Virus record (IMG/VR): IMGVR_UViG_3300045999_013174
Length of the DNA stretch: 64,000 bases
Reading direction: 5' to 3' (one strand)
From: a virus
The position numbers and the translations under genes are program-made. The notes beneath the pieces were generated by a model. The model made no database searches, was not told where the DNA came from, and was given only the letters and a program-made list of their open reading frames with translations. Positions 5,233 through 60,716 of this stretch are shown here, piece by piece; within the stretch, counting starts at the first letter, position 1; each line of letters opens with the position of its first letter.

Positions 5233-7479
5233 ATGGATTTATTCAAAGAAGGATTGACAACGAGCTCTTATTCCGCCCCTCGGAATGACATTCCGATGGA
5301 CGAGATAGAGAAAGTCTATGGCTCTGTCGAGGCTTGGATTGCAAAGAACATTCGATACATATCGACGTTTTACAACCAGCGTCAGAGTTACAGCAACTCT
5401 TTTTTTGGCCAGGCTCGCCCAACAGATTACAATACGATGCGATACGCTCCAGGAGCGTCGCCGGTTACCCGAATGCAGGAAAATTATCGGTATTACCTTG
5501 GAGAGCAGTTTAACTACAAATACTCATTCTTGGAACAAGCCCCCGACGGCTCCACTGTTCCTTCCCCATTCATCCCTGGCCAAAGAGTCTTCCAGGTTAT
5601 TGAGTTTCTGAAGGGTTCTTATGCCAGTGTGGTAAGAAACGCAAAGATTCGTTGCCAGTCTACCAGTAGAGACGCTCAGACTTACAGAGAAAAGATGATT
5701 GCTCTCGCGCTCCTTAAGTATGACCTTTATGAGAATGTCGCCGAAATGGAGGGTATGGGTGTTAAGATTGAAACCCCGTTCGATGGCCTTGAGGTTAAAG
5801 ACAAGAAAGACCTGTTGAGAAAAGCCCAGGAGACTCCGATAGAGCGCTCCGAAATGCTTGGTAATGAGATTTTGGCTCGGGTTGTTGACAAGTATCAGAT
5901 TTTGTCTAAGGCTATCCGTTCTTGGACAGACACTCGCATAGCTGGCCCTACTGGAATGATTTTTCGTAGGTTTGGAACCAGGGTTGATGTTCAGGTTATT
6001 CCGCCGACCCATCTTATAGTAGACAATCGAGTTGACGACGAGTTTAATCGCGAGGCTCGCTTCAGGGGGTTTATAGAGTTTCTTACTCCTGAGGAAATTA
6101 TGGAGCGTGGTTATTCCGGAGTCGGAAGAAAGGAGCGCGATGCTCTTTTTGCCATGGTTGCCAATGAAGCCACCGGTAGCGCGTCCCTTATGGGAACCAA
6201 CATGAACTTTATGTGGTCAAAGCCGCAGACTCGAGAGATTGCTTGCGTTACCGGATATTTTATCTATTTGAAAGACACTCGCCTTGTTTATCGCAGGGAC
6301 TCTAAGGGTAATATCCGACTGCCGTATTCTTACAAGCGACTAAAGGACTCTGACCCTCGTTCGGGTGAAATAATGAAGCCGGTCATTTATTACGGCACTC
6401 TTATAGCGGACCGCTTTCTTGTCGATTATGGCCAGGCTGACGAGACTCTATATGACCCGCTTGACTCCGATAGGCCTTTATTCCCTATTCACGTATTCCT
6501 TCCCGGTATAACAAATGGGATTATTCGGAGCGCCGTTGACCGCCTCCGTGACCACCAGGATATGCATGATGCAATCTCTCTTCGTATCCGGCAGCGGCTT
6601 GCGCGGGCTCACGGGAAGATTCCGGTAATAGATGGGTCTCAGTTTGATGGCAATAAGACTCCAAAGTCTTTTATGCAGGATATTGTCACCCTCGGGTTCA
6701 CTGTTGCCAACCGGGCAAATGGCGAAGAGTTTGACCCCTCGCTTCAGAGAAGAGGGGCGATGGCGGAGTATTTGGATTTTACCTTTGATGCTGACGTTAG
6801 GCAACTCCTTGAGCTTAAGGTTGAGGAGGAGCGCTTGATGAACGAAATGTTTAACACCTCGCCGGTTGTTATGGGAACAAACAGGACCTATGTTGGCTAT
6901 AACTCTCAGCAGCAAAGTATATCCCAGGCGACATTATCATTGGCAAACGACTATGAGAACCACATGCAGTTTGTTACCAACTTTCTGCAGCATCTTCTTA
7001 ATTATCTAAAGAACTACTTCCTTACAGAGCAAGGGAGGAAGGAGGCAGAGCTGTTTTTGTCTCCTCGGTCGCTAAACATGCTTTCATCAACAGAAGGCTT
7101 GGCTTTTGACAACCTTGCCACATCTGTAAACATGAGAGACAACATGAGCGACATTGAGCGACAGCAGATAATTGGAATTGCTCAGACCGTTCTGCCTACT
7201 GGCAACATTGAAGCACTGTTGGCCCTCGTTAAGATTCAGTCTGCCGCAACGAAGACCGATGTTGTCAACGAGCTTGAGTATTTCGCTGAGCGGAAAATGA
7301 GAGAGGCTGCCCAAGCCCAGCGTGACCAAATGATGATGCAAGCTGCACTTTCTCAGCAAAACCAGCAAGGTAGGCTTGATGAGGTGGCGATGAAAAATCA
7401 GGGTACCGTTGACGCTAAGACTGTTGAGGCGGAGGGCAAGCTTGCTAATACTATGCTCAAGGAGGGGATTTCACAATAG
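5233..7479 (+). CDS. portal protein (putative)
   Basis: 748 aa directly downstream of terL and the resolvase, followed by scaffold and capsid genes. Size and synteny only. Confidence 0.5.
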   Translation: MDLFKEGLTTSSYSAPRNDIPMDEIEKVYGSVEAWIAKNIRYISTFYNQRQSYSNSFFGQARPTDYNTMRYAPGASPVTRMQENYRYYLGEQFNYKYSFLEQAPDGSTVPSPFIPGQRVFQVIEFLKGSYASVVRNAKIRCQSTSRDAQTYREKMIALALLKYDLYENVAEMEGMGVKIETPFDGLEVKDKKDLLRKAQETPIERSEMLGNEILARVVDKYQILSKAIRSWTDTRIAGPTGMIFRRFGTRVDVQVIPPTHLIVDNRVDDEFNREARFRGFIEFLTPEEIMERGYSGVGRKERDALFAMVANEATGSASLMGTNMNFMWSKPQTREIACVTGYFIYLKDTRLVYRRDSKGNIRLPYSYKRLKDSDPRSGEIMKPVIYYGTLIADRFLVDYGQADETLYDPLDSDRPLFPIHVFLPGITNGIIRSAVDRLRDHQDMHDAISLRIRQRLARAHGKIPVIDGSQFDGNKTPKSFMQDIVTLGFTVANRANGEEFDPSLQRRGAMAEYLDFTFDADVRQLLELKVEEERLMNEMFNTSPVVMGTNRTYVGYNSQQQSISQATLSLANDYENHMQFVTNFLQHLLNYLKNYFLTEQGRKEAELFLSPRSLNMLSSTEGLAFDNLATSVNMRDNMSDIERQQIIGIAQTVLPTGNIEALLALVKIQSAATKTDVVNELEYFAERKMREAAQAQRDQMMMQAALSQQNQQGRLDEVAMKNQGTVDAKTVEAEGKLANTMLKEGISQ

Positions 7480-14994: not shown

Positions 14995-17900
14995 ATGCCT
15001 GAAGTAAAACTGCAAGGGTTTGTTGGTATTAATTCTGACGATGAGTATTTGCTTGTCCCGCAGCCTGACACGACGTTGGGTCAGAATATTTCAATACAGA
15101 CAGATGTGCAAAGGGAGGGAGGGAGTGTAAAACCCAGGCTTGGAGACCTTTTTAAGTGCGAGATTTCTCCGGTGTCCCCGAGCTCAAAGGTTTATGAAAT
15201 AAGAACAAGCTCTTCTTCTGTTCATCTTAAGATTGTTACTCCAGCTCAGCAGTTTGTCCTTGCTGAGGCATCTGCCACGGGCCCGTTTGCTTTGCAGTTG
15301 GTCGTTGATGAGCTTTCTTTTCTGACTAACCAATACCCTTCGTTAGTAGGGAGCTCGTCTTATGTCTTGTTTGATGTCGAATACTTGATTGATAACCAGG
15401 GGCCATATATTCGGATTTCTCTCCCTGCTTTTGTAGGGCAGGGCGGTATTGCGACAGAGAACCCGAATCGCTATTTTGATTATGATGTCGTTGCTGGGAA
15501 TGATGAAGCATATAGTATTGTCTGTACAAGTGACAATATTTACCCGTCTATGGGTGGAGACCTTCGGGTTATAGGCAGTGTGGACCATCTTGGTAACACA
15601 TTTGTTTTTTCGACAACAGAAGACCGCCGTCCGTCTTCTATAAAAGCTCAGAGTGTAACTTATGTCTCCGCCTATTTTGTCGGGCCTAATATCGTGGCTT
15701 CTCAAACGATTGTAGAGTTGCCCGACCATGGGTTATCTGATTTTGATGCTGTTTCGATTGCTGTTTCAGATAATCGTTTTTACTCAGGCACCTATTCTGT
15801 TACGGTTATTGACCCTGACCGGTTTTATTTGAATGGATATCCGTATACTGTTCAGAATAATGGTCCGATAGCATTCCAGTCTACTGATTGTGTGGTTGTG
15901 TATAACCCAATAGCGATTGGGCAGATTGGTGTTTTGTTTGTTGATGTTTCGGGGCAGGAGCAGTATATTCCTCTTTTAACTTCCCCTGAGCTTAATTTCA
16001 GAACGTATCATCAGATTGATGTCGACGCAGAGGCTTTCCTAAATAAGATTGCTCTTTATTTCACTGACTTTAATAACGACCCTCGTGTGTTTTATTATGC
16101 CGGGGATTTTGTTGAGAACGGGGCTCTTGAGTTTATTAATCCTCAGAATCCGTATAAATATGGGACTATTGCTCAGCAGACCCGGTTGGTCAGCGCTCCA
16201 CAATCTTTGACAGTTCGTTTTGTTGAGCAATTGCAAACCGGAGGCACATTGTTTGCCGGGAATAAGCGATATGTAGCAAGGGGTGTTTCTGCGGACCTTA
16301 CTCCCGGGTTTTGGAGCGAGGCTACTGGCGTTGTTCCTGTTTATACGGCTTCGACAATTGTTTCGCCTCGTAAAATAAAGGGCAATACAACTGCTACTCA
16401 AACCGAGAAGGTTAATGTTATTGAAGTATCGGGAATTGACACCTCGATTTACTTTTTTGTGGAGATTGGTGTTATTGAATATCTCGATTCAGGATATGAG
16501 GCGGTGTTACTCAATCGTGTGGCCTTAAATGGCCGCTCTTCGCTTTTGTATTATCATGACGGTAAAGAAACCGAGCGTCTTGTTTTGCCGGCCCAAGAGT
16601 TTAATATTGACGACCGGAGTGTAAAAAAGGCACTCAATGTGTGTATTCTTGATAATAGGCTTCTGCTCTCTAATGTTGAATTTCGTTCTGAGCGAGGGCT
16701 TGAAGCTGTTCTTGATACTGTAAAATACCGGCTCAAACACTTTGCCCTTCCGAAGCAGGGGCGGGAGCTGGGGCAGTTTTATTTTGATGCGTCAGGGCTT
16801 GATTTTGCCGAGTACCAAAAGCCTGAGAATGTGAGCAAATACATTGGGTACATGCCCAATGAGACTTATTTGTTCGCTGCTCGTTTTGTGTTTAAGAACG
16901 GGTCTAAGTCAAAGCCTGTCCCGTTCTGTACTGTTAAGTTTGACACTGAGTCGACTTCTGCGGATGGTCGTCGTCTTGAGGGGTTGCCTTCTTATGATAC
17001 AATTAGGGGGCACCAATACAATCCGGCTTCGCAATTATATGACAAGGGCGAAATTCTCATTAATCACATTGAGTTTTCAAGCTTCAATTTCAATGCAATA
17101 ATCGACGGCGTTCCGGCAAGGGATATTATTGAGCGTATTGAGATAATGAGAGCAGAGGTTGTGAATCCAACGGTGCTTGGGTGCGGTCTTGCCGTACTTG
17201 CCATAAGGGCAGGTGCAGAAAGTCTTGCAAACACAACTTATCCTGTTTACAGGCCAACTCCTTTTGTTGGAGTTCCGACGGGTTTTGGCCCTCTGTTCTT
17301 TGACCCTGGGTATATGCAGATAGGCCTGGTAAGGCAACCTGATGTTGCATCGTTATACATCCCTGATTTTTTATACACAGGGGCCGATATTTCCTCTGTT
17401 GGCGTTGGTGCAAAGCTGGTTGTTTTTGGTAGTCATGACTATAACGCTCATAAGGATTCTTATGTACAAGCATTCGGCGCTCCCCCGACTGCGTTCCCTT
17501 ATGGAGGTTATATTCATTATGGCGGAGATTCAGGTTGGGGTGGAGCTGGGTTCTCTCCAGTGGAGTACGGTATTGATGAGTTTGGTAGTATAGCTGACGA
17601 TGGGTTTAAGATTTTCGCTGAAGGCTCTCAGTTCCCGTTTATTTTTAGGAACAGGCATTTTATACTGCCGAATAATAACAGGTGGACTCGCAACTTGACA
17701 GTTCGTCTTGATTCTCCTGTACTAACAGAATCTGACCATCAGTGGCAAGAGCCTGATACTCAAGGCGGTGAAACCTTCCTTGCGGGAGACAGGGGTCTTC
17801 GCTATGTTCAGATATACCGGCCAAATCCGGACCAATATAACGACATTGACATCACAAGCGCTATTTACACCCTTGCGAGTATTTCTCCATCTGACACATT

Positions 17901-19494
17901 CGTTGATGTGTTCGGGGGTGATTGTATGTATCAAAGGACGACGTTGAAACTGATGTCTTGTAATGCGCCAAATGTACCGCTAAATACTGGAGCTCCGGTG
18001 TGTGTTGACTTTTATAGCCATAACAGAATAAACGTCCAGCTTAGGGGTAGTGACGAAAATATCGACGCGGCTTACCCAATGGAGTTTGATACAATAAGCC
18101 AGTGGATGCTTCATCCGTTTTTTGACGAAATTGCTTATAGCCGAGCATACACCCCAAGGCAAGAGGCGCAGTCGAAGTTGGTTTTTAACCCAAATCTTCC
18201 GGATGACACAAAGCAGCCAACGACGATAGTTTACTCCCCGGTAAAGACCCGCGGCTCTGTCCAGGACTCGTATCGGCAGTTTTCTTATGCTGACTTCACT
18301 TCCCTTGACACGACATTTGGCCCTATTGTGTTTATGAGGCCCTTTAACGGGGAACTAATTACGCTTCAGGAGCGAAGGGCTCAGCGACAGTTTTTTAATA
18401 CAAGAGGTGTTTTAACTACCTCAGACGGAGCTACAGCCCTCATTGGCGATGGCGCTGCTTTTTATAGAGACGGCTCTACTCTTAGTTCGTTTGGTTGTCG
18501 CCATAAGTGGTCGGTAGTTGTCGGCCGGTCTTTTGGCGGGAATGATGTTTGGTATTGGTATGACGATGTTAATCGTGTTATTTGCCGGTTTGGTGCAGAT
18601 GGTCTTGTTCCTATTTCGTCAAGGGCAAAGTTTAGGACGGAAATCCGTTCGCTGACAGAGTTGGCCTCTGATTCTTTCACTCCTGCAGACGTTTTTGGCA
18701 TTAGCGGGGTTTGGGATGAGGCTTTATCTGAGGTCGTTTGGAGTTTTAAGCTTGCAAGAGGTTATCGGGGGCATTGGACCCCCGGCCTAAACGTGAAGCA
18801 GGGTGAGCTTTATAGCGTAAGGGGTCGGAACTACCTCGGTGTATTTGAGGACGTGCCTGTTCTTTACAGGGCTATTTTTAGTCATGAGGCCTCCTCGTTA
18901 AACGGTCCTGATTCAGACGACCCAGCATGGCAAGAAATTCCATACGGAGACCCTTCGTATATGAAGTTCTTCGGCTTGGTGTTTTCTGAGTCTCAAAATC
19001 GCTTTATATCAGTTGACGAAATCTACCCGGCTATCTTTATAGCCAACAACAGAAATGTTTACTACCCAAGAGCCAAGGCTCCATACGGACTTATTTATAA
19101 GCGAAACGCTGGAGAGCCGTTGGTGTTTTATGACTACTTTGGTGACAGAAAAACTGTTTTTGGTGCTGTAGAGAGCGTGTTCAATATCGACGCCAATATC
19201 CAAAAGAAGGCAGCGGCTTTAAGGGTTAATTGCACTCTTGTACCCCATAAGATTGAAGTTAGGACAGAACTTAATCAAACATTCATTCTTGCTGAAGACT
19301 TTAAGGGTCGCCTTAATCAGTGGGATTCGCCAGTTAATAAGGACTCTCAGGACGAGCAGTCGCGAAAGCAGGGAGAGGGTGGAATATATGGCACTTATGT
19401 CCGGGTAAAGTTTATCTTTGCACCTGAGCAGCATCAGCGTTTAATCAACATGGTTCTTAAATTTAGACCTGTGTCAAGAATGTATACAACATGA
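14995..19494 (+). CDS. large virion protein (tail tube/nozzle-like, putative)
   Basis: 1,499-aa uninterrupted ORF in the structural block. Beta-rich, many Gly/Tyr/Asn. Position corresponds to tail tubular proteins in T7-like order. Confidence 0.5.
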   Translation: MPEVKLQGFVGINSDDEYLLVPQPDTTLGQNISIQTDVQREGGSVKPRLGDLFKCEISPVSPSSKVYEIRTSSSSVHLKIVTPAQQFVLAEASATGPFALQLVVDELSFLTNQYPSLVGSSSYVLFDVEYLIDNQGPYIRISLPAFVGQGGIATENPNRYFDYDVVAGNDEAYSIVCTSDNIYPSMGGDLRVIGSVDHLGNTFVFSTTEDRRPSSIKAQSVTYVSAYFVGPNIVASQTIVELPDHGLSDFDAVSIAVSDNRFYSGTYSVTVIDPDRFYLNGYPYTVQNNGPIAFQSTDCVVVYNPIAIGQIGVLFVDVSGQEQYIPLLTSPELNFRTYHQIDVDAEAFLNKIALYFTDFNNDPRVFYYAGDFVENGALEFINPQNPYKYGTIAQQTRLVSAPQSLTVRFVEQLQTGGTLFAGNKRYVARGVSADLTPGFWSEATGVVPVYTASTIVSPRKIKGNTTATQTEKVNVIEVSGIDTSIYFFVEIGVIEYLDSGYEAVLLNRVALNGRSSLLYYHDGKETERLVLPAQEFNIDDRSVKKALNVCILDNRLLLSNVEFRSERGLEAVLDTVKYRLKHFALPKQGRELGQFYFDASGLDFAEYQKPENVSKYIGYMPNETYLFAARFVFKNGSKSKPVPFCTVKFDTESTSADGRRLEGLPSYDTIRGHQYNPASQLYDKGEILINHIEFSSFNFNAIIDGVPARDIIERIEIMRAEVVNPTVLGCGLAVLAIRAGAESLANTTYPVYRPTPFVGVPTGFGPLFFDPGYMQIGLVRQPDVASLYIPDFLYTGADISSVGVGAKLVVFGSHDYNAHKDSYVQAFGAPPTAFPYGGYIHYGGDSGWGGAGFSPVEYGIDEFGSIADDGFKIFAEGSQFPFIFRNRHFILPNNNRWTRNLTVRLDSPVLTESDHQWQEPDTQGGETFLAGDRGLRYVQIYRPNPDQYNDIDITSAIYTLASISPSDTFVDVFGGDCMYQRTTLKLMSCNAPNVPLNTGAPVCVDFYSHNRINVQLRGSDENIDAAYPMEFDTISQWMLHPFFDEIAYSRAYTPRQEAQSKLVFNPNLPDDTKQPTTIVYSPVKTRGSVQDSYRQFSYADFTSLDTTFGPIVFMRPFNGELITLQERRAQRQFFNTRGVLTTSDGATALIGDGAAFYRDGSTLSSFGCRHKWSVVVGRSFGGNDVWYWYDDVNRVICRFGADGLVPISSRAKFRTEIRSLTELASDSFTPADVFGISGVWDEALSEVVWSFKLARGYRGHWTPGLNVKQGELYSVRGRNYLGVFEDVPVLYRAIFSHEASSLNGPDSDDPAWQEIPYGDPSYMKFFGLVFSESQNRFISVDEIYPAIFIANNRNVYYPRAKAPYGLIYKRNAGEPLVFYDYFGDRKTVFGAVESVFNIDANIQKKAAALRVNCTLVPHKIEVRTELNQTFILAEDFKGRLNQWDSPVNKDSQDEQSRKQGEGGIYGTYVRVKFIFAPEQHQRLINMVLKFRPVSRMYTT

Positions 19495-20102
19495 TTGGTG
19501 AAATGATACTTGGAGTACCTCAGATGGTTATGGGGTTCCAGCAGATGAAGCAATTAAAAAACGTCCCTCGGCCAAACTTCTCTGTCTCTCCGGAGTTGCA
19601 GAAGAGCTACAATCGCGCAGAGACCATGGCTATGCAGGGTTTAACTGCGGCAGAAAGAGCGGCGATGGAAACTCAGCAAGCCGGACAGATAGCTTCGCAG
19701 GTTCGGGCGGGGTTCGCTCGGACTGGCGGAAATATGGCTGGGGCTCTTGGTGTTATTTCGGGAATGGGGCAGTCTCAGTTTACTCTTGGTTTAGGAAAAA
19801 TGGATGCTGATGTTCGGCGCTCAAACATAAGATATGCGGATAGCATTATGCGAGACATTAATCAGGTCCGTATGATGCAGCAGCGTCTTGATATTGAGCG
19901 CGACCAGTCTCGTAGAGACTCTGCCGCCGCCCTGCTTAACATGGGCATGCAGAATATTGCCCAGGGTATAAGCAGCGCAGAAGATAATGTCATGTATCTT
20001 GCCGGCTTACAGATGGGTGGTGGAATGGGGAGCATGCCAGGAATGCAAGACGGAGGCGGTAACTCATACGTTAAGCGGCCTTATACTCGTTATAAGTTAT
20101 AA
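19491..20102 (+). CDS. Met/Gly/Ala-rich internal virion protein (putative)
   Basis: 203 aa, Met/Gln/Ala-rich helical composition with MGGGMGSMPGMQDGGG tail. ATGA overlap with the 1,499-aa gene. Confidence 0.4.
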   Translation: MIGEMILGVPQMVMGFQQMKQLKNVPRPNFSVSPELQKSYNRAETMAMQGLTAAERAAMETQQAGQIASQVRAGFARTGGNMAGALGVISGMGQSQFTLGLGKMDADVRRSNIRYADSIMRDINQVRMMQQRLDIERDQSRRDSAAALLNMGMQNIAQGISSAEDNVMYLAGLQMGGGMGSMPGMQDGGGNSYVKRPYTRYKL

Positions 20103-38741: not shown

Positions 38742-39071
38742 ATGAACCTGGATACCCAGCAATTAAAAACTCGGTTGTTTTATGCTGACGCATGCCAGGC
38801 TAATGTTGCTCTTAAGGCGATTGAGGCTGATGCTAAGGGTGAGTATGACCGGTATAAGCACCTGATGAATGTTATTCGGGGTTTGCATTGGAGAATAGCT
38901 TCTTTGAGGTGCTTGCAGATGAGTGATGGGGTTTTGGTAAATGAAGATGCCCAGTGCCTGAGTACCGCTGATGTGTACTCAGTGCTGGATTGGATTAATC
39001 AGGTTTGCGGCACAGAATGCTGTAGCTGCACCTCTGTTCTTGAAGAAAACATCCCTCCATTGCTAATGTAA
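38742..39071 (+). CDS. hypothetical Cys-rich protein
   Basis: ORF track starts at a TTG at 38715. The ATG at 38742 directly after the upstream stop is preferred. C-terminal CGTECCSC. Confidence 0.35.
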   Translation: MNLDTQQLKTRLFYADACQANVALKAIEADAKGEYDRYKHLMNVIRGLHWRIASLRCLQMSDGVLVNEDAQCLSTADVYSVLDWINQVCGTECCSCTSVLEENIPPLLM

Positions 39072-41599
39072 TGCCTCCTGTAAAACGAATAGAACTTCCG
39101 ATAAGACCTGATGACCTGTTTAAGGTAATCAGGTTTTTTAACTCAAAACAGGACGAGCTTCATGTTTCGTTCAGGAATCTGCTCACCCAGCTTAAGAGTG
39201 AGCTTCAGCCTGGAGGAGGAGCATCTTCGCTTGATGAGTTGAGCGATGTAACCGTATCGAGCCCGGCGGGCGGGGATGTATTGACTTACAATAATCTAAC
39301 GGGCCAATGGGAAAACGCAACCCCTTCGGTTCAATTATTGGAAGTTGAGGACGAAGGCGTGAGTGTAGATGCTTCTGTTTCGGTAATAAACTTTGTTGGC
39401 CCAGGGGTTACTGTAAATCCAATAAGCCCTGGGGTTGTGGAAGTGGACGTCTCTTCTTCCGGAGGAAGCTCTCAGCTTAATGAGCCAACAGGCGTACTAT
39501 TCGGTGGCGTCTTGTCTGCTTCAATAGGAGGAACCACCTTTAGCCTAACAGCAGGTATCGGTCAGATTGTTACTCAGACATCCACAATATCAGGGGTATC
39601 AACAACGGTAACTCCTGTTTCTTGGGCCGCTGCAACAGCAGTTCCTATAACCAACATATCTACTGCTCCATTTACCTATGTTTTAATTAACAGCACAGGT
39701 GCTATAATTCAGCAGACAACACCATTTACCGACGCTCAGTACAAAACGCATATTGTTATTGGTATTCTGTGCCATATCAACCTTGCTACTGTAAACCTTG
39801 TAACCAATACTCAGAATGTAGCCTACCAAGACCCCTATAGGCTTGTTGAGTTAATAAGACTGTTTGGTCCTATTAAGAAAACAGGGCTAACTATAGGCCC
39901 TAACGGGGCCAATCTTCGTGTAAACAGGGCGTCGGGGGAGGTTTTCAAGATAGGCTCCAACTACACCACAGCAGCATTTGAGCCTGATGTGGATACTATA
40001 TCAGCAGTAACGCCTGCTCAGTTGTGTAGGGTTTACAGGGATGGTTCAGGAGGATTTGTATTTGACACCAATGGAGGGTTGTTTTATACCGATATAGCGC
40101 CTAACTTATGGGATAATGGTTCGGGAACTCCTCAAGCTGTTCCGTCAAACAGATGGACAGTACAAAGGCTTTTTATGTTTCCTGATAACCCTAATGACAT
40201 TATTTGTTATTATGGCATTCAGCTTTACAACAACTTTAGTGAAGCAAGAGCAGGTGTTGAATTTGAGCAGTTTGATGAAGCTCAGATAACTGCTGAAAAT
40301 GCCGTGTTCCTTGGGTTTTTATTTGTAAGACACAATGCAACTGCTCTTAATAATCCTTCACAAGCAGCTTTTCTTCAAGCTGGTTTGTTCAGAGGTATCC
40401 CTCCTGGTGGCGGAGGCTCAGGTGGCGCTGGAACGGTAACAAGTGTTGGCGCGACTGTTCCAAACCCAGTTAACCCTGCTTTTTCGGTAAACGTAACCAA
40501 CCCAACAACTACTCCATCGGTAGACATTACCGCAAACGGAGACCCAACTCAGTATGTTGATGGAGAAGGAGCATTGAGGCCGTTCCCGATAGTTCCGCCA
40601 CCGGAGTCTGTTTACCCTTACCAAAGACGGCAGTATTTTAATCTCGGAGACGGGCGTTCTTTAGGGTATTACCAAAACAAACTGTTTATAGTCAACAATA
40701 CAGCAAATCAAATTAGGGTAGTTGATACTGAAACAAACACTACCTTGCTTTCAACCATATTGAACCTTGCCAACACTTCGCAGATAATAGATGATATTGC
40801 CACTCCTGAGCATTGGTGTACATCAACTGGCGGGGCGGTTCAGATAGCAAGGCACAACGCTATTACAGGCGCCTTTATAGCAAACTCTACACCTACGGGT
40901 GTTGTAACTTCTGCGATACAGTCAAGGTTTGTTTCTTTTAGCTCAACAAAAACAATAGGGGCAAACTTAACCAATGTTTACACCATAAACCCTTCAACTT
41001 TTGTCACTGCAAATCTTACTGCGCATGGTTTAGGTACTTTAATGGTTTATTTGGCTGTAAACAAAAACCCATCCTCTCTGCATAATAATCTTTGTATGGT
41101 TGGGGGTCAAAATGGAATTATGCTGTTCGATTGCGTGACCAACACAACTACCTTGGCGGCAACAAATTTAGGAGGAGTTTTGGGTAATGTTTTAGAAGTG
41201 GCTTATGATGCTGTAAATGACCTTTGGTTTGTCGCAACTATTGTTTCCACCGTATTCAGAATTATTGCCTTGCAGCCAGCAAGCCCTACTACATTTAACA
41301 TCATTTACAATAAGTCAGATATATCCTCCAATGATTTTACACTTACTGGAGGTAACGCAAAACAAGTTTCATTAATCCCAATTCCGTCATTAGGGCAATT
41401 GTACGTATGCTTAAATAACCTTATTTACCCCTGTTCTATACTTACGGGTCAGGTTGTTAAAAGCGTAAACTTAATATCTCAGATAGGAACAGTGCGCCCA
41501 ACTAACGTAATTCTTGATGCGGTAAATAAAAGAATGTTTTATGTTACTGCCGGCTCAGGTAATACTACCGTATTTGAAATAATTTATGATAAGCCATGA
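39071..41599 (+). CDS. tail fibre / receptor-binding protein (putative)
   Basis: 842-aa beta-rich, Asn/Thr/Gly-rich ORF, last large gene of the structural block. ATGA-type coupling to upstream gene. Confidence 0.5.
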   Translation: MPPVKRIELPIRPDDLFKVIRFFNSKQDELHVSFRNLLTQLKSELQPGGGASSLDELSDVTVSSPAGGDVLTYNNLTGQWENATPSVQLLEVEDEGVSVDASVSVINFVGPGVTVNPISPGVVEVDVSSSGGSSQLNEPTGVLFGGVLSASIGGTTFSLTAGIGQIVTQTSTISGVSTTVTPVSWAAATAVPITNISTAPFTYVLINSTGAIIQQTTPFTDAQYKTHIVIGILCHINLATVNLVTNTQNVAYQDPYRLVELIRLFGPIKKTGLTIGPNGANLRVNRASGEVFKIGSNYTTAAFEPDVDTISAVTPAQLCRVYRDGSGGFVFDTNGGLFYTDIAPNLWDNGSGTPQAVPSNRWTVQRLFMFPDNPNDIICYYGIQLYNNFSEARAGVEFEQFDEAQITAENAVFLGFLFVRHNATALNNPSQAAFLQAGLFRGIPPGGGGSGGAGTVTSVGATVPNPVNPAFSVNVTNPTTTPSVDITANGDPTQYVDGEGALRPFPIVPPPESVYPYQRRQYFNLGDGRSLGYYQNKLFIVNNTANQIRVVDTETNTTLLSTILNLANTSQIIDDIATPEHWCTSTGGAVQIARHNAITGAFIANSTPTGVVTSAIQSRFVSFSSTKTIGANLTNVYTINPSTFVTANLTAHGLGTLMVYLAVNKNPSSLHNNLCMVGGQNGIMLFDCVTNTTTLAATNLGGVLGNVLEVAYDAVNDLWFVATIVSTVFRIIALQPASPTTFNIIYNKSDISSNDFTLTGGNAKQVSLIPIPSLGQLYVCLNNLIYPCSILTGQVVKSVNLISQIGTVRPTNVILDAVNKRMFYVTAGSGNTTVFEIIYDKP

Positions 41600-54061: not shown

Positions 54062-54544
54062 TTATAAACAATCCGAACTTGGCTCGGGTATTATCCAGTC
54101 CATATTAAGTTCATAATACTGACGGATAGCCTCGAGCCTTTCTCCGAATTCTTTGGTGTTGTAGAGCGTCGTTGAGGTTGGGATATTAATCGTCTCTCCG
54201 GTCGCTCCATTGAAGATTGTCACACAGAAAAAATTCGCCTTATTGAACTCATGCATCTGCTGCTTTGATAGTTGTAGCCCGTGCCTTTCCTTGTGCGCTT
54301 TAATCTGCTCTGCGACAACAACGCCATAGTAATAGGCGTTTTGAGCAAGGGAGCGCTTATCGCTATCAAAAACGCTAAGTTCCATCACCAATGTAGAGCC
54401 TTTGAATTGCGATACGAATTCATTAAAAGCCTTTCTGTTGATGATTTTAGCAACCCCCGTGTCGCTATCGACACGGAGGAAGAATCTGTTCTGAAAGCTT
54501 GACAGCTCCTTAATCGACCTCATTGGCATCAGGCTTAAGCTCAA
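54062..54544 (-). CDS. NinB/Orf-like recombination mediator
   Basis: 160 aa. SDKRSLAQNAYYYGVV resembles the lambda Orf (NinB) core ERNRSLDQNRKLWACLGDV, from memory of the family. Confidence 0.45.
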   Translation of the reverse strand: MSLSLMPMRSIKELSSFQNRFFLRVDSDTGVAKIINRKAFNEFVSQFKGSTLVMELSVFDSDKRSLAQNAYYYGVVVAEQIKAHKERHGLQLSKQQMHEFNKANFFCVTIFNGATGETINIPTSTTLYNTKEFGERLEAIRQYYELNMDWIIPEPSSDCL

Positions 54545-56020: not shown

Positions 56021-56641
56021 TTATTTAGGGTTAAGAAGCTTGTTTGTCGTAGCGGAACAATAAAGCCCGCCGAAGAATTGATTTATAGCCTTATTAAAAA
56101 CATCCGCACCCTCTATACCCCACCCGGGGGAATTGTCGCGCTTGAGGGACTGGTAGGCTTTGTCAAAAAGGGTTATACAGGAGCGTAGCTTCATACAATC
56201 GACAAAGCCGAACATATCCAATAGCTGCTTGGAAATGTCTTTGTTTGTAAAGGTTCTGAGCATATAGGACAATAAGTCCACAAGCGCCTCCCTCAATTCA
56301 TCATCGAGAAGGTACTCTTTTGCTTCCTTCATGCCTTTAATGCCGTAGAAGCGGGATATTCTGCTTTTGCCGAGACCTCTTATCTGCGGGTACATAAACC
56401 ACATATAGCACATGCTCTTTTTCCCTGCTGCAATATCAGCTTTTGCAAATAAATGCATACCCGCGGAGGCAAGCTTAAAGCGGTCAAGCCCTACCCCTGC
56501 AACGGTGTTGAATACGTGCCTTGCTGCTTCGTAATAATCGGAGCCGCGAAGTTCCTGGGCGCCAATATACGCCTTGATGAAGACCTCAAGGTCGAGGTCG
56601 TTTTCCCTCATTAGTTTGAGGGCAAGTTCTGATTTTTCCAT
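56021..56641 (-). CDS. hypothetical protein with conserved WFMYPQIRGLGKS motif
   Basis: 206-aa ORF. The motif is reminiscent of a DUF-type family (recalled, unverified). Confidence 0.4.
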   Translation of the reverse strand: MEKSELALKLMRENDLDLEVFIKAYIGAQELRGSDYYEAARHVFNTVAGVGLDRFKLASAGMHLFAKADIAAGKKSMCYMWFMYPQIRGLGKSRISRFYGIKGMKEAKEYLLDDELREALVDLLSYMLRTFTNKDISKQLLDMFGFVDCMKLRSCITLFDKAYQSLKRDNSPGWGIEGADVFNKAINQFFGGLYCSATTNKLLNPK

Positions 56642-56664
56642 TTTTGCTCATTTTAAGGGTTTGT

Positions 56665-56746
56665 GGTCAGGACAGGACTCGAACCTGCATCAGAGGTGGC
56701 AGAGTTTACTACATCACCTTGCTTTATCCAATTACGCCACCTGACC
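56665..56746 (-). tRNA. tRNA-like gene with aberrant anticodon arm (identity undetermined)
   Basis: Minus-strand sequence GGTCAGG..AGGTG[16 nt]CACCT..GCAGGTTCGAGTCCTGT CCTGACC A. Perfect 7-bp acceptor stem, canonical GGTTCGAGTCC T-arm and a 5-bp anticodon stem, but a 16-nt anticodon loop instead of 7. Confidence 0.45.
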
Positions 56747-56824
56747 AATTCCCCGCGCTCCGTTATTTCCCAAAATCATAGCGCGGGGGATAAAGAACTA
56801 ACCGGATACCGCCGGCACGGTAAT

Positions 56825-57718: not shown

Positions 57719-58126
57719 CTATTCCGTGTTGTTTTGGACGGTTAAATTAAAACGTATGTAATCAAATGCTGCTGAATAGGCTTCTTGTGGTGATTTATGT
57801 TCTCCTAATCTACTAGGTAATTCTACCATATCTCCAAAAGTATGTTGTATACAAGCATACCATATTTTTCCATTAGTATAACTGTAAACCCAAATACCAT
57901 GATTAACTCTTAACCACTGAACAACTTGATGTTGTTCGGGGGCAATGAGAAGATTTGTAGTATTATAGTATCCTCCATCTTCTTTAATCCATTTATTTGT
58001 AACAGAAGCTCTTTTAAGCTTCTTGTTTGTATCGTAACAGTGATTACAGTAGTCTGAATCAAATCCATTTTCAAACAACCACTTGGCTTGTTCAAAGGTT
58101 ACGTATGTTGGTTCGACTGTTTTCAT
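57719..58126 (-). CDS. hypothetical protein
   Basis: 135-aa ORF. Confidence 0.4.
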   Translation of the reverse strand: MKTVEPTYVTFEQAKWLFENGFDSDYCNHCYDTNKKLKRASVTNKWIKEDGGYYNTTNLLIAPEQHQVVQWLRVNHGIWVYSYTNGKIWYACIQHTFGDMVELPSRLGEHKSPQEAYSAAFDYIRFNLTVQNNTE

Positions 58127-58806
58127 AGTATTTTGGTTATTTTTATTTTACCGTTGGTGAGTTTGGGTTGTTGTATCTCAGGGTGCTTACAACCTTCATA
58201 TTTTTGACAACCAAATAAAATACAATCTTCACTTCCGCAAAACTTTTCAATTTCTACCTCCCAACACTTAGGTTGAGATAGAGATTGAGCAAACATTTCT
58301 ACTATTTTATCAGGAGTAGTACGATGAACTATTTGAGCTTCTTCTAAAGGTTTAGTTGGGCCGTAAGACTTTTTTAACCAGTAGTAAAATTTTAACATAT
58401 CCTCCTCGGTAAACCTTCTGTCAGACAGGAGTTCGAGGGCTTTTTGGAAGCCTGCAATATAATTTTTAACCTGATAAAAGCCTTCTCTATCGTAAATTTT
58501 ACTTGGCATTTCTCCAAAATAATCATTATGATGCAGTGCCAATTTCTCAATATCAATCCACCCAATCTCTCTCAGTTTCTCTTCGGGAATGTCATCGGAG
58601 AAGGTTAGTTGGTGTTGTTGGGCTATTATTTTTTTGGTATTTTTAGCCCAATAAGAGTCATCAGCAGTTCTCAAACATTTAACAATATAAAGCTGATTAT
58701 TATAACCGGGACTACCTTCTAAATCAAAACATAAATCATCTTTTATAGGTTTTTCATCAGAAGTAACAATAAACCCTTCGGGTAACTTGTGTAAGTGCGT
58801 TTTCAT
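58123..58806 (-). CDS. hypothetical protein
   Basis: ORF track extends to 58872, which would run into the terminator hairpin of the upstream gene. ATG at 58806 (MKTHLHKL..) preferred. Confidence 0.4.
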   Translation of the reverse strand: MKTHLHKLPEGFIVTSDEKPIKDDLCFDLEGSPGYNNQLYIVKCLRTADDSYWAKNTKKIIAQQHQLTFSDDIPEEKLREIGWIDIEKLALHHNDYFGEMPSKIYDREGFYQVKNYIAGFQKALELLSDRRFTEEDMLKFYYWLKKSYGPTKPLEEAQIVHRTTPDKIVEMFAQSLSQPKCWEVEIEKFCGSEDCILFGCQKYEGCKHPEIQQPKLTNGKIKITKIL

Positions 58807-58837
58807 TTCGTAAAGTTTTGAGTCGTTGTTCGGGTTA

Positions 58838-58880
58838 AAAAGAAAAAGCCCGGCTGTGACACGAATACACAAGCCGGGCC
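58838..58880 (-). terminator. rho-independent terminator (minus strand)
   Basis: Minus-strand GGCCCGGCT-(loop)-AGCCGGGC followed by TTTTTCTTTTT. A second GC hairpin (58881-58911) is adjacent. Confidence 0.6.
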
Positions 58881-60109: not shown

Positions 60110-60182
60110 TAGCTTCGGCAGGAATCGAACCTGCATCTTCCGTTTAGGAAACGGACATTCTATCCATTGAACCACGAAGCCT
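60110..60182 (-). tRNA. tRNA-Arg (anticodon CCU)
   Basis: Minus strand folds by hand into a cloverleaf: AGCTTCG TG GTTC AATGGATA GAAT G TCCGT TTCCTAA ACGGA AGAT GCAGG TTCGATT CCTGC CGAAGCT A. 7-bp acceptor, D-arm, perfect 5-bp anticodon stem, loop U-U-CCU-A-A. CCA not encoded. Confidence 0.75.
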
Positions 60183-60191
60183 GAGTTTAAC

Positions 60192-60716
60192 TCAAAAGAC
60201 TGGCGTGAACACTTGTCCATTCGGAAACAACGAAGGGGTATCGCACCCGTCAGAAGGAGAGTCGCCACCCCATGAAGGGGTGGCTTTCTCAATAATCGCC
60301 ATAATGTACAGCAAATAAGAAATGCGATACACCGAAGCATTTCGCTCTATCTCCCAATTAAAACCGCAGGTTTTGGTTAAGCCTTCGATGATGGTCTGCT
60401 GTGGCTTGTCCTTCGTTAAAGAAGAAAGATGGGCGTTGTAAAACCACTCAAGGAGGCCTTGCTGAACAAGCTTAATCATAACCATACGCCGCTGATTTTC
60501 TTTGATAACAGAAAGGAACCTACTTTGAATCGAGGCTTCAGTTACAACGGTTACATTATCCCAATTTCGTTGAACATCATCATCTTTAACCAGGAGCCAT
60601 TCGAGCGATGGGTATAGGCTTAAGATGTGCGCTCTTAAATTAGCGCGAGACCCATCATTGGTCTTAAACATGGATACGGGAATCCTGTACCCTTCGGGCA
60701 AAAAGTTTTTTCTCAT
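60192..60716 (-). CDS. hypothetical protein
   Basis: 174-aa ORF between the GATase gene and tRNA-Arg. Confidence 0.4.
   Translation of the reverse strand: MRKNFLPEGYRIPVSMFKTNDGSRANLRAHILSLYPSLEWLLVKDDDVQRNWDNVTVVTEASIQSRFLSVIKENQRRMVMIKLVQQGLLEWFYNAHLSSLTKDKPQQTIIEGLTKTCGFNWEIERNASVYRISYLLYIMAIIEKATPSWGGDSPSDGCDTPSLFPNGQVFTPVF

Follow-up and report, generated by a model that had tools for sequence, protein, structure and literature searches.

A phage tRNA-like RNA with a bulged hairpin in the anticodon-arm position and its family of constant tRNA-Leu-type bodies with variable centres

The viral record IMGVR_UViG_3300045999_013174, analysed as one stretch of 64,000 nucleotides (nt) and called the window here, carries on its minus strand an 83-nt gene for a tRNA-like RNA. 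From its sequence we infer a stable, non-decoding tRNA mimic in which the variable arm would be the effector and the tRNA body would direct maturation, a reading to which a probability of about 0.55 is assigned. The gene is a structurally distinct member of a large, phage-borne and apparently undescribed RNA family, in which a nearly constant tRNA-Leu-type body, or chassis, encloses centres that differ from copy to copy. This family and its modular design are well supported.

Read 5' to 3' on the minus strand (56746 to 56664), the gene consists of GGTCAGG TG GCGT AATTGGATA AAGC A AGGTG ATGTAGTAAACTCTGC CACCT CTGAT GCAGG TTCGAGT CCTGT CCTGACC A. An earlier note on this DNA had described a perfect acceptor stem of 7 base pairs (bp), GGTCAGG/CCTGACC, which is present base for base, and a textbook T-arm, GCAGG-TTCGAGT-CCTGT, which is found as claimed. 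Its 5-bp AGGTG/CACCT stem, enclosing 16 nt in the anticodon position, is confirmed as well and is backed by compensatory changes in relatives. The Rfam tRNA model matches the element at 41.7 bits (gathering score 29, E = 2e-6), aligning AGGTG/CACCT with 13 extra loop nucleotides. The enclosed segment had been taken for a loop; its length of 16 nt is correct, but in the predicted fold it is a bulged, extended arm made of bulge, inner stem and apical loop, and not an open loop.

The tRNA finder ARAGORN gives two further pictures. By default it calls a class II tRNA-Tyr(GTA) whose anticodon stem has 3 of 5 pairs, with two mismatches, and whose 14-nt "variable arm" is unstructured, while in intron mode it keeps AGGTG/CACCT and reports a tRNA-Arg(TCT) with a 9-nt insert. 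Because these folds disagree, relatives were needed to choose among them. The 3' half of the element, GCAGGTTCGAGTCCTGTCCTGACCA, led to one viral contig with the same ends and about 57 nt replacing the anticodon arm. Two scans, one of viral contigs and one of metagenomes, used the D-arm and T-arm signatures of the subtype to which the window element belongs as anchors and yielded seven further distinct members, so that the subtype alignment comprises eight sequences, the window element and seven relatives.

This alignment favours the AGGTG/CACCT fold. In the whole cloverleaf 93.5% of the cells are paired, compared with 25-46% after the 3' partners are slid along the sequence, and the acceptor, T- and D-arm helices are 75-100% paired. 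The AGGTG/CACCT-type stem is paired in 92.5% of its cells, with double compensatory changes at two of the five pairs (C-G/G-C and U-A/A-U); its unpaired cells all come from L136, in which a 4-nt variable loop shifts the alignment by one column. The stem of the default ARAGORN fold is paired in 37.5% of cells and shows no covariation, and what ARAGORN presents as the variable arm of a tRNA-Tyr is the 3' strand of the covarying outer stem. The earlier note had named a normal tRNA call with a different fold as the result that should count against it; formally the tRNA-Tyr(GTA) call is such a result, but its fold fails on the relatives. The D-arm, described there as weak, is weak thermodynamically with its one G.A mismatch, yet the D-stem, mismatch included, is invariant in all eight members and carries a normal AATTGGATA loop, in which variation is confined to positions 20-21.

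The segment inside the outer stem is also structured in the relatives. There it measures 15-20 nt and consists of a 2-4-nt bulge on the 5' side, an inner stem of 3-4 bp and an apical loop of 4-7 nt. The inner stems of the subtype covary, reading GUAG/CUGC, GCAG/CUGC, UAGG/CCUA, UGGG/CCCA, UUGG/CCAG, UUGG/CCAA and UGG/CCA, and close the apical loops UAAACU, CAAACU, UGAAACC, UGAAAAU, AUAU and AAUUGG. The closest relative of the window element is that of L137, an 82-kilobase (kb) metagenomic contig with 93% identity to the window across 9 kb. Its element differs at two positions only, turning GTAGTAA into GCAGCAA on an unchanged chassis: at 56711 a T-to-C change converts an inner-stem U.G pair into C-G, a slight improvement of that stem, and at 56708 another such change falls in the apical loop. 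The GTA, TAG and TAA triplets are all gone in L137, where GTA reads GCA. Covariation across the subtype and the unchanged chassis of L137 argue against decay.

The wider family emerged from a gapped pattern fixed on GTCAGGTGGCG and GGTTCGAGTCC only, which found at least 120 viral loci; among those listed, ordinary tRNA-Leu(GAG) accounts for about eight matches and unrelated sequence for a few more. The family figures come from at least 122 fetched loci and a relaxed scan and are lower bounds: at least 180 copies in at least 122 loci, comprising at least 146 distinct sequences and at least 107 non-redundant centres. The near-invariant chassis is AGTCAGG TG GCGGAATTGGTAGACGC (centre) (A/G)CAGG TTCGA(G/A)T CCTGT CCTGACT A, in which GCGGAATTGGTAGACGC is the D-arm in its tRNA-Leu form. 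The centres are wholly dissimilar, and among the matches listed the 107 non-redundant ones span 28-99 nt with a median of 51. The nucleotide before the T-stem is T, the equivalent of U48, in 96 of these 107 members, and the discriminator is A73 in 94, which together indicate that the tRNA tertiary core is kept.

Acceptors with other sequences occur too, each with a matching 3' strand. Manatee Spring podovirus MW202828 has AGTGCAG/CTGCACT, the 735-kb phage LR756501 has AGTTAAG/CTTAACT inside a tRNA array, and the cultured Bacteroides salyersiae phages BS-TP2 and BS-TP3 have GGTATCG/CGATACC and GGGTAAT/ATTACCC, respectively; all four members lie in unannotated stretches. The family is phage-specific and almost absent from bacterial and archaeal genomes: a scan of 185,579 species genomes for its chassis gave six matches, all on short contigs of metagenome-assembled genomes (MAGs). 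About a third of the listed loci hold 2-5 copies, with up to five in one fetched locus; gaps between copies go down to 39 nt, and about half are below 230 nt. Centres within such an array are no more alike than centres of different phages.

Ordinary tRNAs lie within 1 kb at 31% of the listed loci. In L089, a genuine tRNA-Leu(AAG) with the identical AGTCAGG/CCTGACT chassis stands about 150 nt from an anticodon-less copy. A canonical 5-bp stem with a 7-nt loop is found in three of the 107 listed centres, a chance level (about one in shuffled centres); two of these three are plausible true tRNA-Leu, one of them the tRNA-Leu(AAG) just described, and the family therefore descends from a phage tRNA-Leu.

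Standard searches register the family poorly. To Rfam its loci appear only as weak, over-long tRNA matches, scoring 33-58 bits and extending to as much as 131 nt. Of the 180 listed copies, 134 receive no ARAGORN call, and most of the others are labelled with assorted isotypes or '???'. When one member was compared with GenBank phages by BLAST, no full-length copy was returned, and members were recognised only by inspecting partial matches. The 3-kb neighbourhood of the window element had no nucleotide match among GenBank phages, its exact 29-nt arm sequence had none among viral contigs, and the downstream DUF1810 protein, used as bait in viral contigs, brought up no syntenic relative. Further over-long tRNA-like elements of 105-177 nt, on other chassis such as one with acceptor CGGGGAG, score 26-38 bits with the family model described below (Table 1), and the expanded-centre tRNA body is thus probably broader than the AGTCAGG chassis. 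In some members (L024, L027, L076, L082 and L030) an extra G+C-rich hairpin, for example GAGCGTGGTGTCCACGCTC, sits in the D-loop.

Membership of the window element was assessed with R1, a covariance model of 56 family members from which the window's subtype was excluded. The element scores 62.4 bits (E = 1.5e-13), above the members of BS-TP2 (59.1 bits) and BS-TP3 (36.3 bits), the tRNA-Leu of phage T4 (35.7 bits), the window's own tRNA-Arg(CCT) (29.2 bits) and T4 rnaC (23.6 bits), while T4 rnaD gives no match; a genuine tRNA-Leu in L081 reaches 56.4 bits, so R1 does not discriminate between family members and true tRNA-Leu whose chassis is similar. The general Rfam tRNA model reverses the order, giving 41.7 bits to the element and 68.9 bits to the tRNA-Arg, which shows that R1 measures likeness of chassis. 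The element has the AGTCAGG/GGTCAGG-type acceptor, the T-arm RCAGG-TTCGART-CCTGY, the discriminator A and the U48 equivalent of the family; it is phage-borne, is devoid of a canonical anticodon arm and holds a structured, lineage-specific centre. It does not have the class II features, namely a 3-bp GCG/CGC D-stem, a Leu-type D-loop and a hairpin abutting the T-arm. Most family members present a short first segment and then a hairpin abutting the T-arm, whereas in the window's subtype the hairpin occupies the anticodon-arm position. With its 4-pair D-stem, 5-nt variable loop and arm in the anticodon position, the element therefore represents a distinct subtype and not a typical member.

Dissimilar as they are, the centres are more structured than shuffled versions, with a mean minimum free energy (MFE) of -9.39 against -7.20 +/- 0.20 kcal/mol. 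Pairwise comparisons show several modes of conservation: L077 and L101 keep the apical loop with both stems changed, L089 and L104 keep the centre on differing D-arms, and L016 and L011 share a single-stranded segment and also a loop motif, with the hairpin stem changed. Anticodon-like 7-nt loops at hairpin tips are not enriched in the 107 listed centres (2 against 1.6 expected), and the idea of a decoder with a lengthened arm was rejected on this count. A recurrent GGTAA/GTAGTAA motif, an impression gained by eye, was not upheld by a motif count. GNRA-like and T-loop-like motifs occur in some centres. In L139 and L140 a hairpin loop, CCCUCCUCU, resembles an anti-Shine-Dalgarno sequence; no other centre shows an obvious candidate for an mRNA-binding seed. 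Given the GNRA-like and T-loop-like hairpins on the one hand and the CCCUCCUCU loop on the other, protein or tertiary contacts and base-pairing are both possible. Some centres contain what looks like a second T-arm-like hairpin, GGAGTTCGAATCTC in L039 and TACGGTTCGAATCCGT in another.

These features can be assembled into a model. The RNA would be a paralogue of phage tRNA-Leu that keeps the L-shaped body, with its discriminator A on the acceptor, the elbow formed by D-loop and T-loop, and the U8-A14 and A15-U48 pairs, and in which the anticodon arm would have been swapped for a longer bulged hairpin without an anticodon loop. Co-transcribed with its flanking genes, it would be excised like the phage's real tRNAs, by host RNase P at the 5' end followed by 3' trimming and CCA addition. 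The tRNA body would confer stability and might also allow recognition, or even leucylation, by leucyl-tRNA synthetase (LeuRS). For bacterial LeuRS the determinants are A73 and the tertiary core, not the anticodon, and leucylation is conceivable because both are present. The variable arm would then be a lineage-specific effector that binds a host or phage partner, making the whole a natural 'tRNA-scaffolded' small RNA. Extended to the family, this becomes a modular RNA system in phages, many of them probably infecting Bacteroidota, in which several cassettes per genome combine the constant tRNA-Leu chassis with hypervariable arms, each addressed to a different host or rival-phage RNA or protein target; this extension is tentative, and the odds are against it.

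Several observations weigh against the proposal of an effector arm on a tRNA body. The sample is biased by the search patterns, which fixed positions 2-12 and the T-loop, and strict retention of a Leu-type D-arm is not obviously needed by a mere scaffold. The structural departures of the window's subtype mean that its function could differ from that of the main family. No universal centre motif was found, the best 5-mer, TGGTA, occurring in 23 of the 107 listed centres. Complementarity of the centres to nearby DNA of their own phage does not exceed that of shuffles (mean z = 0.1, n = 122). When 56 centres and that of the window (4,019 nt) were compared with phage DNA, only their own source records matched, and capture of centres from other phages in the manner of spacers was set aside on that result. 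Clustering of 1,714 open reading frames (ORFs) within +/-3 kb revealed no shared neighbouring protein, the best family reaching 11 of 113 loci. Finally, the GNRA-like and T-loop-like motifs suggest tertiary or protein contacts over antisense pairing.

The strongest competitor holds that the RNA is a decoy or sponge, its tRNA-Leu body binding a host factor that recognises tRNA bodies, such as a defence tRNase directed at class II tRNAs, a tRNA-modifying toxin or LeuRS; without an anticodon loop, normal use or cleavage of the bait would be impossible. A strongly conserved chassis and tertiary core around a freely varying centre speaks for such a role, as do the missing anticodon arm and the restriction to phages, and tRNA-targeting defences and tRNA-based phage counter-measures are well documented (PMC10264068, PMC11464382, PMC13056530). 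It leaves unexplained, however, why one phage should hold several copies with unrelated centres and why sub-lineages conserve their centres with covarying stems, and no such decoy is described in the literature searched. A decoy is possible but doubtful.

A second competitor, judged unlikely, assigns no role to the excised RNA. The element would then be a punctuation mark in a polycistronic early transcript, a cutting site for RNase P and RNase Z between the DUF6876-like and DUF1810 genes, as tRNAs are in mitochondrial transcripts. The layout fits: the gene sits in a 183-nt gap between co-directional ORFs and ends about 22-35 nt before the next start, as the phage's tRNA-Arg does, and only the top half of the tRNA, the part these enzymes recognise, is conserved. 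Closely packed arrays of 2-5 copies, separated by as little as 39 nt (gaps that were not checked for ORFs), are however difficult to account for in this way. The centres are structured and lineage-conserved, and although any tRNA would serve, it is the Leu-type chassis that persists in phages of very different kinds. Both the decoy and the punctuation model explain the conserved top half; neither explains the diversified arrays together with lineage-conserved arms.

A genuine decoding tRNA, either the class II tRNA-Tyr(GTA) of ARAGORN or a tRNA-Arg(TCT) whose 9-nt insert is removed after transcription, is very improbable. The Rfam score above the gathering threshold and the default tRNA-Tyr call speak for it, and intron mode yields a perfect Arg(TCT) cloverleaf with A20 and C35. 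The Tyr fold, however, forms only three of its five anticodon-stem pairs in the window, with 37.5% of cells paired in the relatives, and its GTA, which the earlier note had pointed out and which would be the anticodon, is GCA in L137. Of the marks of a bacterial class II tRNA-Tyr, the anticodon stem is thus incompletely paired, the GUA is not conserved, and in place of a paired long variable arm there is a strand of the outer stem. The intron reading, also raised in the earlier note, does no better: applied to the eight subtype members, its rule gives TCT twice, CCA three times, CCC twice and GCC once, all on a shared chassis whose discriminator is the same in seven members, and position 37 comes out as a pyrimidine in three of the eight. 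The only bulge of the arm, 2-4 nt on its 5' side, has no counterpart on the far side of a 4-bp helix, so there is no bulge-helix-bulge motif, and an insert of 9-13 nt cannot be a group I intron. The scarcity of Shine-Dalgarno (SD) motifs before genes and the relatives in Bacteroides phages suggest a bacterium as host, in which a tRNA-splicing endonuclease would be lacking. Nor is there the 5-bp stem and 7-nt loop with U33, purine 37 and a conserved anticodon of a canonical decoder; known natural decoders have anticodon stems of 5-6 bp and 7-nt loops (PMC7609411).

Equally improbable is a decaying, functionless tRNA pseudogene with an insertion in the anticodon loop, another suggestion of the earlier note. 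The disrupted loop and the D-stem mismatch would suit it, but the mismatch is invariant, eight subtype members on different contigs keep every helix with compensatory changes, the chassis is identical between two phages that are 93% identical overall, and the element is part of a large, conserved and covarying family of at least 146 distinct sequences with structured centres. Least probable of all is an attP site or its remnant, a partial copy of a host tRNA gene used for integration, for which the note had cited a serine recombinase gene that does lie 1.35 kb away; many phages integrate into tRNA genes, but serine integrases typically do not target them, the 266-amino-acid (aa) recombinase is without the C-terminal domains of large serine integrases and has the same length in L137, the cloverleaf is complete and not a 3' fragment, the family forms multi-copy arrays with members in a 735-kb huge phage and podovirus-like genomes, and the chassis occurs in only the six short MAG contigs mentioned above (a host-genome scan made with the family chassis and not with the window's own GGTCAGG/CCTGACC acceptor by itself). 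Of the note's suggestions only the remaining one, a tRNA-like regulatory RNA, survives; it is favoured as to the kind of molecule, with regulation as a possible role.

Table 1. Coordinates of the tRNA-like RNA gene and its parts, of other features of the window, and of selected elements elsewhere (window positions unless a record or contig is named).
Feature	Coordinates	Strand	Remarks
Whole tRNA-like RNA gene, 83 nt	56664..56746	minus	G1 = 56746, discriminator A = 56664; Rfam RF00005 41.7 bits; family model R1 62.4 bits
Acceptor stem, 5' strand GGTCAGG	56740..56746	minus	100% paired (8-sequence alignment); pair 1:72 covaries G-C/A-U
D-arm GCGT-AATTGGATA-AAGC, 4-pair stem with G.A mismatch	56721..56737	minus	A14, A15, G18 and G19 present
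Outer stem, 5' strand AGGTG, anticodon-arm position	56715..56719	minus	pairs with 56694-56698; covariation
16 nt inside outer stem, ATGTAGTAAACTCTGC	56699..56714	minus	MFE folds; inner stems covary across subtype
2-nt bulge AU	56713-56714	minus	MFE fold
Inner stem GUAG / CUGC, 4 bp	56709-56712 / 56699-56702	minus	MFE fold
6-nt apical loop UAAACU	56703-56708	minus	MFE fold
Outer stem, 3' strand CACCT	56694..56698	minus	covariation with AGGTG
5-nt variable loop CTGAT	56689..56693	minus	last T (56689) = U48 equivalent, Levitt-pair partner of A15
T-arm GCAGG-TTCGAGT-CCTGT, G.U closing pair	56672..56688	minus	100% paired; T-loop = family consensus TTCGAGT/TTCGAAT
Acceptor stem, 3' strand CCTGACC, then discriminator A (56664)	56665..56671	minus	A = discriminator in 94/107 family members
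3' trailer CAAACCC	56657..56663	minus	CCA not encoded; same as trailer of the phage's tRNA-Arg(CCT)
G+C-rich hairpin CCCCCGCGC...GCGCGGGG	56751..56789	minus	fold; ends 4 nt upstream of RNA 5' end; 100% identical in L137
DUF1810 protein gene, directly downstream of RNA	56021-56641	minus	Pfam E = 3e-29
Serine recombinase gene, 266 aa	54510-55310	minus	Resolvase domain and first half of Recombinase domain
ORF after serine recombinase gene	54062-54544	minus	start overlapped by recombinase gene end; faint NinB-like match, E = 0.044
Hairpin preceding tRNA-Arg(CCT)	60182-60196	minus	
ORFs with lower identity to L137	57719-58126, 58123-58872	minus	74-79% identical, with 150-nt indel; surroundings 96-100%
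Portal gene	5233-7479		
Virion structural protein gene	14995-19494		
Largest ORF in window, 4,597 aa	22026-35819	plus	
Tail fibre gene	39071-41599		
Family member of BS-TP2	PQ571275.1 about 19550-19657 (L131 2495-2602)		intergenic between DUF2303 and NinG genes
Family member of BS-TP3	PQ571276.1 about 27702-27811 (L132 2428-2537)		intergenic, upstream of large terminase gene
Centres with CCCUCCUCU hairpin loop	L139 620-697; L140 2957-3034		
Over-long tRNA-like elements	L122 5671-5813, 5825-6001; L135 4838-4955, 5072-5214; L136 1253-1377; L140 4358-4473		R1 26-38 bits

The window is that of a tailed phage, with portal, virion structural protein and tail fibre genes. Its tRNA-like gene is co-oriented with both ORFs that bound its gap, DUF6876-like and DUF1810; a 1-nt indel in L137 shows that DUF1810 starts not at its first but at its second ATG (about 56629), about 35 nt beyond the end of the RNA. 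An equivalent tight gap between co-directional ORFs holds the phage's genuine tRNA-Arg(CCT). Its trailer reads A|CAAACC as at the element, which suggests common maturation, and a hairpin closely precedes each of the two genes; these hairpins and CAAACC trailers may be shared processing signals. The G+C-rich hairpin upstream of the tRNA-like gene may be a processing or terminator element, and its membership in the RNA is uncertain.

SD-like motifs precede 3 of 60 genes, compared with 12.6% of random 16-mers, and upstream regions are 65% A+T against 54% overall. Together with the family members in Bacteroides phages and on Bacteroidota MAG contigs, this poverty in SD motifs suggests a Bacteroidota-type host. 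A sigma-70 promoter scan around the locus found none, and only weak terminator-like hairpins were seen; the host probably uses other promoter types. No other Rfam RNA family was found in the window, and Pfam and PHROGs revealed no recognisable RNA-processing or tRNA-binding protein among about 20 neighbouring ORFs. The 266-aa length of the serine recombinase is kept in L137, so it does not stem from an assembly frameshift. About 1 kb upstream of the RNA, 57719-58872 forms a hotspot of divergence from L137 (Table 1). The largest ORF of the window encodes 4,597 aa, and in Manatee Spring podovirus MW202828 an 11.6-kb ORF adjoins the family copy.

A comparison with known systems finds likeness on separate counts. 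By descent, the closest is the class II tRNA-Leu of phages, with which the family shares the D-arm GCGGAATTGGTAGACGC, the T-arm, A73, U8-A14 and A15-U48. Phage tRNA-Leu has, in contrast, the 5-bp stem and 7-nt anticodon loop that all but three of the 107 listed centres are without, and without which the family RNA cannot decode. The window's subtype departs further, replacing the class II D-arm and long variable arm by a 4-pair D-stem and a 5-nt variable loop. By anatomy, the closest is T4 rnaC. Together with rnaD (species 1 and 2 RNA) it is likewise a phage RNA of unassigned function among tRNA genes, and its long non-tRNA centre is framed by a terminal T-arm of tRNA type, CCGGG-UUCGAAU-CCCGG, and by a closing helix that resembles an acceptor. 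It differs in having no recognisable D-arm and no sequence relationship to the family (its R1 score is below those of ordinary tRNAs), and neither T4 RNA is known to occur as multiple copies that differ in a hypervariable centre.

By proposed mechanism, the closest parallels are RNAs engineered on a 'tRNA scaffold' and, in murine gammaherpesvirus 68, small RNAs linked to tRNAs; both use a tRNA body as the processing and stability chassis of a foreign hairpin, which takes the place of the anticodon arm or comes after it. The parallel is one of analogy only, with no evolutionary relationship: the scaffolds are synthetic, and the RNAs of the eukaryotic virus are hairpins downstream of a tRNA that depend on RNA polymerase III and tRNase Z. 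The tRNA-like domain of transfer-messenger RNA (tmRNA) and the tRNA-like module of the bacterial Y RNA YrlA are also non-decoding mimics of acceptor, T-arm and elbow without an anticodon arm. A tmRNA is excluded by negative ARAGORN tmRNA and Rfam searches, by the length of 83 nt and by the absence of a conserved frame; a candidate tag mini-ORF, AUG-UAG-UAA, is lost in L137, which has an unrelated frame. For YrlA there is no Rfam match, and the window element has the normal topology of a tRNA, of which YrlA is a circular permutation.

Other tRNA-derived RNAs stand outside normal decoding. The pseudo-tRNA 'tRNA-Other' of Bacillus cereus is one such RNA. Others are the irregular, allo-tRNA-like polycistrons of soil metatranscriptomes, some of which occur in arrays (PMC7609411). 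All these RNAs are bacterial and differ in their chassis, which has an acceptor/T geometry of 8/4 or 9/3 or is that of an ordinary class I tRNA, and they lack the design of constant chassis and hypervariable centre. No description of the family was found in Rfam or in the searched full-text literature, a coverage that leaves out most subscription journals, and a large-scale survey of structured viral RNAs mentions no more than a few unspecific candidates labelled 'tRNA or tRNA-like' (PMC10690425).

The family bears on how phage tRNA genes are counted. As tRNA finders miss such genes or assign them assorted isotypes, 'tRNA-Tyr' in the window among them, phage tRNA inventories, arguments from codon usage and inferences of suppression or recoding can be contaminated. 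Since BS-TP2 and BS-TP3 grow on Bacteroides salyersiae BG8, the family is experimentally accessible now. Why phages carry tRNA genes is an old question, and here a sizeable class of tRNA-like genes has dropped decoding yet stays under selection, which points to tRNA mimicry for another purpose, be it effector scaffold, decoy or processing signal. A constant chassis with a hypervariable arm and several cassettes per genome is unusual among non-coding RNAs of bacteria or phages. If the modular system proposed above is real, the family would be a repertoire of tRNA-disguised effectors and not a set of translation components.

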